DNA from: an uncultured Verrucomicrobiae bacterium
GTDB lineage: Bacteria > Verrucomicrobiota > Verrucomicrobiia > Chthoniobacterales > Xiphinematobacteraceae
DNA: 64,000 bases
Direction of reading: 5' to 3'
NCBI GenBank assembly: GCA_963706715.1
Contig: CAVPNI010000002.1
Location: 576,001-640,000 of the forward strand
Shown here: positions 5,896-7,591 of the stretch, one piece after another
Position numbering within the stretch: the stretch's first letter is position 1
Layout: every line of letters starts with the position of its first letter
Notes under the pieces: generated by a model
Seen by the model: only the letters and a program-made list of their open reading frames with translations
Told to the model about the DNA's origin: nothing
Database searches by the model: none
Translations under genes and position numbers: made by a program

Positions 5896-5983
5896 CAGGA
5901 AAGTGGACCCGCTTCCAAACAATAGCATAGTTCGTAGCCATCAAGTCCAAAGGACTCGTATTTTAGTCCACTAACTGAGTAGG

Positions 5984-6165
5984 GTAAGGTTGCTCAGGTC
6001 AAGCTGTAAAATGGCCGGCGTTTCTATGGAGCGTAAAAAGCCCGCATCGTAGATTGGCTCCGGTCCGCTGCACACGTATTTTTTGGAGAACGCAAAGTTT
6101 CCCGCTGGGTAGATTTGTCTACAATATGTCAACGGACCGGCAGCTTTGGCCTGAGCACACCTTAC
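5984..6165 (+). ncRNA. Putative bridge-RNA-like structured ncRNA of the IS110 element
   Basis: Outer stem 5984-6006/6141-6165, inner stem CCGGTCCG/CGGACCGG, two paralogous motifs CCCGC-NNN-GTAGATT at 6041 and 6101, located upstream of the IS110 ORF. Confidence 0.65.
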
Positions 6166-6185
6166 AAGTTACTGATAACTAAAAA

Positions 6186-7493
6186 ATGAAAAATCTGACC
6201 ATACTAAATTTAAAAGCGGCAGGAATAGACGTAGGCAGTGAACACATGCATGTTTCTATTGCCGGAGGAGCACCTAAGGTTTTTGGAACCTTTACCAGTC
6301 AGTTGCACGCCCTGCGCGATTGGCTACTTCAAGAAGAGGTGTGTACGGTGGCAATGGAAGCTACTGGAGTTTATTGGATAGCCTTGTATGAGATTTTAGA
6401 GGAGAGCGGCATAGAGATAAAAGTGGTTAATGGTAAGTACGTACGCAATGTACCTGGAAGGAAGACGGATATGGCCGACTGCCAATGGATAGCAACTTTG
6501 CATGCTCATGGCCTATTAAAAGGTGGTTTTGTACCTCAGGCCAATATTCGGCAGTTGCAGGATTATTTGCGTTTGCGAAGCGATCATATCAGAGCAGCAG
6601 CTAGCCATGTACAGCATATGCAGAAGGCCTTGGAACGCATGAATATCAAGTTTCATGACGTAATTCGTTCACTTTCCGGAGTTAGTGGACTTAAGGTGAT
6701 TGAAGCCATTCTAAAGGGCGAGCGTGATCCTCAAGTGTTGCTTTCTCTTTGTAGCCTCCAGATTCAGAGGGCAAAGCGCCATCGAGTAATTGAGAGTTTG
6801 CGTGGGACTTGGACCAAACAGCATCTCTTTGCCCTTAGACAAGCTTATGATGCATGGCATTTTTGCCAGGAGCTCGTTAGGCAATGTGACCAAGCCATAG
6901 AAGAGCTATTACAGGAAAGTGTTCAAGGCCTTCAGCCTCCCTCAACTCCCAGCGCAACAAAAAGGATTGGAGGCTGCAATGCTCCTCAAATTAAAGATCT
7001 CCACCGTTTACTTATGACTCTTTGTAAGGGAAAGGATCCGACGCTCTTACCCGGTATTACCGACTATGGTCTACTCGAGTTGATTGGTGAAGTAGGTACC
7101 GATTTGACCTGCTGGAAAAGTGAAAAGCATTTTACTGCTTGGCTTGGATTAGCTCCTGGCAGCAAGCAAAGTGGTAAGCGGCAAGCTAGATGTTCTAGAA
7201 GTCGCAATCGAGCAGGTCGCATTTTCTGTGTGGTAGCCCGTTCTCTTGCCCGCAGTGTAAACAAGGCTCTGGGCGGTTTCTATCGACGATTGCGTGCACG
7301 GCGCGGTGGATTAGTTGCTAATAAAGCCCTGGCTCGTAAGTTGGCCGTCCTTTTTTGGCGCGTTATGGTACACGGCTTCCCCTACGTTGAAAGGGGCCTC
7401 GAAGTTTACCATGAGCAGGTTGCTCTCTCCCAAAAACGCCTTCTTTCTAAACTCGCAACAAAACATGGTTATTCCCTGGTCCCCAATATTTAA
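6186..7493 (+). CDS. IS110-family recombinase/transposase, intact
   Basis: AAGIDVG, MEATGVYW and RKTD..D (DEDD RuvC-like), WLGLAPGSKQSG serine motif, A.ARKLA. Confidence 0.95.
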   Translation: MKNLTILNLKAAGIDVGSEHMHVSIAGGAPKVFGTFTSQLHALRDWLLQEEVCTVAMEATGVYWIALYEILEESGIEIKVVNGKYVRNVPGRKTDMADCQWIATLHAHGLLKGGFVPQANIRQLQDYLRLRSDHIRAAASHVQHMQKALERMNIKFHDVIRSLSGVSGLKVIEAILKGERDPQVLLSLCSLQIQRAKRHRVIESLRGTWTKQHLFALRQAYDAWHFCQELVRQCDQAIEELLQESVQGLQPPSTPSATKRIGGCNAPQIKDLHRLLMTLCKGKDPTLLPGITDYGLLELIGEVGTDLTCWKSEKHFTAWLGLAPGSKQSGKRQARCSRSRNRAGRIFCVVARSLARSVNKALGGFYRRLRARRGGLVANKALARKLAVLFWRVMVHGFPYVERGLEVYHEQVALSQKRLLSKLATKHGYSLVPNI

Positions 7494-7509
7494 TCCATTC
7501 AGTTAGTGG

Positions 7510-7591
7510 GTAGTTGGTGGTTCGTAGGGCCCACAGCCAAAAAAAAGCAGCAGATTCATCCCATGAAGCGAACTGTTCATGGGCAGAAATC
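7510..7591. repeat. Dispersed repeat (heptamers plus CCATGAA-N8-TTCATGG hairpin)
   Basis: Close match to the reverse complement of 59709-59790. Confidence 0.75.

Follow-up and report, generated by a model that had tools for sequence, protein, structure and literature searches.

Repeat targeting, AG cores and gene-less miniature derivatives (MITEs) are already known from published elements of this kind (PMC11208160, PMC12288879). IS621 and ISCro4 are described as having a catalytic set of DEDD residues plus a serine, an RNA with two loops upstream of the gene and a repeat as target (PMC11208160, PMC11208158, PMC13626964); their recombinases have 328–341 residues and their 2-nt core reads CT on the strand that is cut first. 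Elements of the IS1111 group (ISEc11, ISPa11) are reported to carry the non-coding region downstream of a gene for 330–350 residues, to place the guide that complements the top strand first in the target loop, and to have 11-bp subterminal inverted repeats at distances of 7 and 3 bp from the ends (PMC11187229). ISPpu9 of Pseudomonas putida and its derivative MITEPpu9 have AG at both ends, an upstream non-coding region, tandem and gene-less derivatives, an antisense RNA (Asr9) and an intergenic repeat, the 35-bp REP, as target; by our own count from Table S2 of that report the A box runs 6 nt, hairpin, 8 nt, 2 nt and repeat, and the B box repeat, 2 nt and AG, and the sections on which this comparison draws give neither a terminal inverted repeat nor pairing of a guide to an end (PMC12288879). 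Single-strand excision has been reported for IS621 (10.64898/2026.08.31.748434) and for CazIS110-1 (10.1101/2025.10.25.684509), and the copy-out models for the two have this step, single-strand integration and half-match insertion in common with the proposal made below; the parts of those reports used here contain no donor with both guides on one folded strand. In the open-licence PMC and bioRxiv literature we found no paper on a fold-back or single-stranded folded donor. Folded single strands are the recombination substrates at integron attC sites and at the ends of IS200/IS605, which use tyrosine or HUH enzymes and no guide RNA.

The IS110-family element analysed here occupies positions 5938–7513 of the window, that is, of the whole stretch of 64,000 nucleotides under analysis (Table 1). 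Its recombinase, longer at 435 residues than those of IS621/ISCro4 and of the IS1111 group, has the domains PF01548 and PF02371 (RuvC-like DEDD and C-terminal serine domain) and scores 222 bits against the profile NF033542, whose cut-off is 140; among 99 sequences E58, D95, D98 and S329 are invariant and D15 is present in at least 90%. A profile of the recombinase, aligned to IS621, retrieves IS621 and ISCro4 from the PDB (8wt6, 9t56), and a phmmer search of the PDB with the recombinase gave no match. The traits of the family are found as a specific target, a short shared core without any longer duplication and, by prediction and covariation, a non-coding RNA with two guide loops. The non-coding region is long upstream of the gene (248 nt) and short downstream of it (20 nt), as in the IS621-like IS110 group and unlike the IS1111 group. 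Compared with IS621/ISCro4, target and donor have the reverse orientation with respect to the gene. The order of the guides in the target loop (6018–6025, then 6045–6052) is that of the IS1111 group. A perfect 11-bp inverted repeat, conserved in relatives, lies asymmetrically, its arms being 30 nt inside the left core and 2 nt inside the right one; the repeats of IS621/ISCro4 measure 2–3 bp, and a long subterminal repeat is foreign to the IS621-like group. The preliminary description of this locus, which had the element combine an upstream non-coding region with subterminal inverted repeats, was right that both are present, but the repeats are not of the IS1111 type with its distances of 7 and 3 bp. 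The guides, the internal match of one of them and the adjoining mini-element were all missing from that description.

Compared by eye, the layout has in common with ISPpu9 the AG cores, an A box with a palindrome, a repeat target and a MITE, the target here being a heptamer array instead of the REP. In one element (L073), whose protein is 39% identical to the window recombinase, the left end (905–965) is nearly identical to part of the ISPpu9 A box, and the guides match target and right end well and the internal site in part. The four end motifs of our element were not found in the six searchable supplements of PMC11208160.

Table 1. Features of the element, its target and the adjoining mini-element, in positions of the window.
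Feature	Position	Strand	Basis or detail
Separate repeat often ahead of the heptamer array, outside the element	5872..5928	+	~22 starts in genome
Left target flank (heptamer repeat), same-sense match to 3' target guide	5929..5935	+	
Left core AG (CT on minus strand)	5936..5937	+	end alignment, guide covariation
First 6 nt inside left end; complementarity of 5' donor guide 1/6	5938..5943	+	
Left-end hairpin, 5-bp stem, 3-nt loop, from +7	5944..5956	.	
Internal site, 8/8 identical to 5' donor guide	5957..5964	+	
Inverted repeat, left arm, off-centre	5968..5978	.	
Predicted bridge RNA, outer stem around two guide loops, ends approximate	5984..6165	+	fold z -5.27; covariation
5' target guide, ends in CU; weak pairing with core and right flank	6018..6025	+	z 3.0
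3' target guide, ends in AG; 6/8 identical to left flank	6045..6052	+	z 13.7
5' donor guide; match at 5957-5964, none beside the core	6075..6082	+	z 9.8 vs 0.0
3' donor guide; 7/8 identical to element right end 7506-7513	6105..6112	+	z 9.5
IS110-family recombinase, 435 aa; D15, E58, D95, D98, S329	6186..7493	+	
Inverted repeat, right arm, 2 nt ahead of right core	7499..7509	.	
Right core AG	7512..7513	+	
Right target flank: two further heptamer units, ending in next target site	7514..7527	+	
Gene-less 59-bp mini-element, same clade	7528..7586	+	6 nt, hairpin 7534-7550, site 7551-7558
Mini-element, inverted repeat and core	7528..7586	+	first arm begins 7561, second ends 7582; core AG 7585-7586
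Heptamer target paralogue, uninterrupted	43947..43969	+	

Eleven left and eleven right ends are present in the 3.04-Mb genome, every one identical and with GTAG outside each. The alignment of the flanks of all genomic copies, which the preliminary description had put forward as a check, thus turned up identical ends in 11 of 11 copies and heptamer arrays at 10 of 11, in keeping with what it had expected. Its flank coordinates also hold, as 5929–5937 joined to 7514–7527 gives the sequence at 43947–43969, but the right end that it had placed at 7527 includes 14 nt of target, and the element terminates at 7513. The joined 23-mer, with a chance expectation of about 2e-9 in 64 kb, has 19 exact copies in the genome, and for that reason 43947–43969 is a paralogue of the repeat and not a unique empty site; a longer paralogue of the empty site of the window copy lies at C1:213618–213548, with 71 nt matched at 95.8%.

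Five of the 11 copies are full length (99.9–100% identity). The other six, at six different sites, lack the 200 bp that correspond to 6036–6235 of the window, and with them three guides, the start codon and D15 (C1:112446–113817, 149478–150849, 553044–554415 and 781275–782624; C4:92729–94100 and 373054–375805). Since the four deleted copies without further damage have three point differences in common, their sequences suggest that a single deleted form has likely spread in trans. A tandem pair at C1:147888–150849 consists of a deleted copy, two heptamer units and then a full copy, and in the deleted copy at C4:373054–375805 an insert of 1.64 kb contains a 457-aa ORF resembling a DDE transposase, presumably IS701-like. 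The element was absent from the 30 genomes of relatives that were searched, save for one 59-nt match (in G010), and additional junctions, both at 7513 and at the left end, are seen in contigs from two soil runs of one study, which lend weak support as the study is possibly related to the source. Neither a circle joint nor an empty-site joint of the element was found in the four contig sets searched. Its orientation with respect to GC skew is 7 versus 3 (p 0.34).

All 11 left flanks read (A/G)GTTCGTAG and 10 of the 11 sites have at least three heptamer-like units within 24 nt, the remaining rebuilt site holding a single unit, which bears out the earlier claim that a multicopy heptamer repeat is targeted. 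There are 203 occurrences of GTTCGTAG in the genome against 49 expected, with 121 lying outside long ORFs (150 codons or more), and given 251 intergenic TCGTAG sites the probability that all 11 insertions would be in the repeat form is about 3e-4, or 1e-3 if nine events are counted. There is no conservation in the right half of the target, the flanks beginning with TT (8), AA, AG or GG. That the repeat might act as a safe harbour, as had been proposed, agrees with the finding that no long ORF is broken: eight copies lie outside long ORFs, and the position of the other three coincides with the TAG stop of an ORF (188, 429 and 502 codons), all of which stay whole. The heptamer itself provides these three stops, with the element directly after them (C1:473322, C1:113817 and C4:94100), and one of the three ORFs ends in what is presumably an EAL domain. 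Because 79 sites that match the guide perfectly (CATCGTAG) are unused by the element, the choice of target is not wholly explained by the guide. A cruciform target found no support, inverted heptamers being near 1 of 11 targets versus 49 of 192. The separate repeat that often precedes the array has a sharp GGCTC start, which we take to be ISL3-like, a small hairpin and several sub-types, and no inverted end of it was found within 2.6 kb. A same-genus genome without the element (G001; C51, C19 and C30) has four short stretches that match the heptamer array and the start of the mini-element.

The core had been described as the four nucleotides GTAG. All 22 junctions in the genome have GTAG in common, and from this genome alone the crossover is not placeable within it, but 22 of 34 relatives share only AG between target and donor ends, a further seven sharing 3 nt, three sharing 4 and two sharing more. 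The GT that precedes AG in the window element is therefore likely to be accidental, and the alignments of relatives make AG, that is CT on the minus strand, the likely core, which is also the core of IS621.

The predicted bridge RNA lies in a region (5980–6190) that folds with a z of −5.27, and the consensus of 26 aligned relatives has two internal loops with two-sided changes in 23 of 36 pairs. An Rfam search of the region yielded no family and one chance match; no sigma-70-like promoter was found in 5850–6250 and no second bridge-RNA region elsewhere in the genome. Guide covariation was assessed against 5000 permutations in a sample of 53 loci whose proteins are about 57% or more identical, plus L021, the window included; 47 of the 53 were parsed and six dropped, and 44 were left after removal of duplicates, 36 of these with both ends. 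Left cores were placed by the best match of the 3' target guide, and the repeat position and 3-nt spacer of the window were set by hand. On this basis, and across 36–44 relatives, the 3' target guide covaries strongly with the left flank (z 13.7) and the 3' donor guide strongly with the right end (z 9.5), and the 5' target guide covaries weakly with the right flank (z 3.0). Handshake positions agree in the donor loop (0.47 vs 0.30, reached in 2 of 5000 permutations) and are without significance in the target loop. Between four copies in one genome (L020 and L022–L024) there are differences both in the 5' target guide and in the base that comes first inside the left end.

The 5' donor guide departs from IS621/ISCro4, in which it reads the opposite strand beside the core. 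Canonical pairing of this kind was rejected, as the guide shows no signal against the plus strand beside the core either at fixed placement (2.01 vs 2.02 permuted, z 0.0) or at free placement (z −0.2), and donor guides on opposite strands across the core, as in the IS621-like group, are thus not found. Its same-sense match is instead to a site that stops 2 nt short of the left repeat (6.22 vs about 4.11–4.16, z 9.8), 20–27 nt inside the left end, and is 8/8 in the window; as the guide is identical to the plus strand there (5957–5964), its partner would be the minus strand. The profile of offsets from −40 to 0 peaks only at −2, the excess elsewhere never rising above about 0.5, and after thinning of kin to one element per cluster z is 6.9 (22 clusters), 3.4 (6) and 1.8 (3). 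Three mis-anchored elements were removed from the 44 for the analysis of hairpin and site, and in the 41 left guide and site are identical at 217 of 246 positions over 14 different site hexamers. The mismatches include 18 that are wobble-compatible with the minus strand versus two in the reversed sense, and agreement is poor at the two positions of the guide that face the core (identity at column 8 in 8/41). Covariation of this extent makes it well supported that the 5' donor guide reads the internal site.

In 32 of the 41 elements the hairpin, which starts at +7, closes precisely where the site begins, compared with at most six at shifted registers; its pair types are mixed, and the pairing of its arms (3.12) falls to 1.30 when the arms are swapped. 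Its register sets the site opposite the core and runs on into the inverted repeat. Because the 5' donor guide matches the internal site in register with both the hairpin and the off-centre repeat, the sequences suggest that the donor is probably a folded single strand. The joined minus strand of the window folds as predicted (−12.3 kcal/mol), with a bubble of 10 by 11 that is one off the register of the clade; the other strand also forms stems (−11.6 kcal/mol), the predicted fold is not the lowest in energy in many relatives, and the hairpin is weak in several (fewer than three pairs in 9/41). A crude scan of 71 distant loci gave 41 repeat candidates, many of them probably due to chance, nine with a hairpin, and a guide-like match in ten, several of 8/8 being in unrelated sequence. 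A role of the hairpin as terminator, as which a scan had flagged it, was rejected, since in most relatives the site after it is not rich in T. In one relative, tandem copies (L175 and L176, NZ_CP049319.1) have a flank that repeats the element's own right-end motif, which suggests insertion into its own end.

The gene-less mini-element that adjoins the target also occurs at about 59712–59770 on the minus strand. The genome has 35 matches to it and, by a strict pattern, 21 full copies of 57–60 bp, of which 13 follow TCGTAG and nine have an empty-site look-alike; a looser pattern gives 27 versus 34 with respect to GC skew (p 0.44). It opens with 6 nt and the hairpin, continues through the 8-nt site and 2 nt into the first repeat arm and, after a gap of about 5 nt, closes with the second arm, 2 nt and AG, so that only the donor-end features of the full element are retained. 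Positions +1 to +4 are variable (0.43–0.76), unlike most other positions, of which the pattern itself fixes the stems and repeats. As predicted by the 5' target guide, 17 of 21 mini-elements have two purines directly after the core, versus 56 of 203 background sites, and the full element does no better than background (3/11). The present 5' donor guide fits the commonest sites of the mini-element at about 4.5–5 of 8 positions in a hand count. At C3:18560–18960 a mini-element stands ahead of what is left of a related IS110 transposase, its 3' part, which has a similar right end of its own, an order resembling the ssr9-'tnp-B arrangement described for ISPpu9 (PMC12288879). Given this remnant and the partial fit of the guide, the mini-element may have been moved by a relative that is now extinct.

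From these comparisons we lean towards a reading in which a predicted bridge RNA, with four guide segments in two loops, would direct the recombinase to AG within a TCGTAG unit of the heptamer repeat, the donor being the minus strand folded back on itself. By analogy with IS621, the core would read CT on the minus strand, and this strand, bound by both 3' guides, would be cut and exchanged first. In the joined-end minus strand the inverted repeat and the small hairpin would pair and leave a bubble of about 10 by 10 nt, in which the 3' donor guide would pair at the real core and the 5' donor guide with the folded-back segment opposite, a segment that would replace the missing second strand. The minus strand would be copied out and joined into the minus strand of the target, with a free single strand as substrate and the second strand coming from host replication or repair, and the deleted copies and the mini-element would be mobilised in trans. 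Mutants of ISPpu9 bear on this proposal: changes in the bases just after the left AG are reported to abolish the correct end, and a point mutant of the A-box hairpin gave normal minicircles by end-point PCR (PMC12288879). Both results would count against a folded donor of this kind. An after-the-fact rescue would be that the inverted repeat alone holds the site opposite the right core in excision and that the hairpin serves integration.

The same contacts between RNA and DNA could possibly be made on duplex, in a supercoiled circle that is locally opened or extruded as a cruciform, with no free single strand. This fits all of the covariation, both strands of the junction form stems at the energies given above, and CazIS110-1 is reported to prefer a duplex donor about 20-fold at one junction (10.1101/2025.10.25.684509). 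It is nevertheless unlikely in our judgement, as it needs about 50 bp to be opened, and mini-elements of 57–60 bp are below the 64–65 bp at which duplex circles already kink (PMC2275110), so that such a duplex circle is hardly possible for them. A direct-transfer route without a circle would also move the mini-element. More doubtful again is that an antisense RNA of the left end (Asr9-like) is the partner of the 5' donor guide, or that this guide is a leftover duplication, with an ordinary duplex donor recognised by one guide and protein ('half-match'); although an antisense partner would give the same wobble bias, ISPpu9 has such an RNA and tolerates mutation of the hairpin (PMC12288879), and IS621 is described as functioning with half matches, this leaves unexplained why site, hairpin, core and far-end repeat arm have a common register and why these features are retained in a mini-element without a gene. 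A version that builds on the preliminary description, an IS621-like duplex recombination with a GTAG core and IS1111-type subterminal repeats, fits the GTAG at every junction in the genome, but is highly improbable given that most relatives share AG alone, that covariation found no canonical right-donor guide and that the repeats lie 30 and 2 nt from the cores.

Papers of 2025–2026 disagree on whether it is as single or as double strands that IS110 elements move, and this clade offers a direct test, as guide, site and a natural minimal donor of 59 nt can all be read and the guide sequences fit only the folded strand. Repeat targeting by itself is ordinary. If the reading as a folded single strand is true, the off-centre inverted repeat and the hairpin would together form a mock duplex, the palindrome in the A box of ISPpu9 would be re-explained, and the donor-guide rules of IS621 would not be valid across the family. 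We regard the chances as evenly balanced that these elements represent a widespread branch of bridge recombinases specialised on single-stranded cargo, in which both donor guides would read one strand as a mock duplex and the 59-nt dumbbell would be a complete natural minimal donor, allowing a programmable RNA-guided insertion of ssDNA; the clade would then hold a bridge recombinase for ssDNA cargo.
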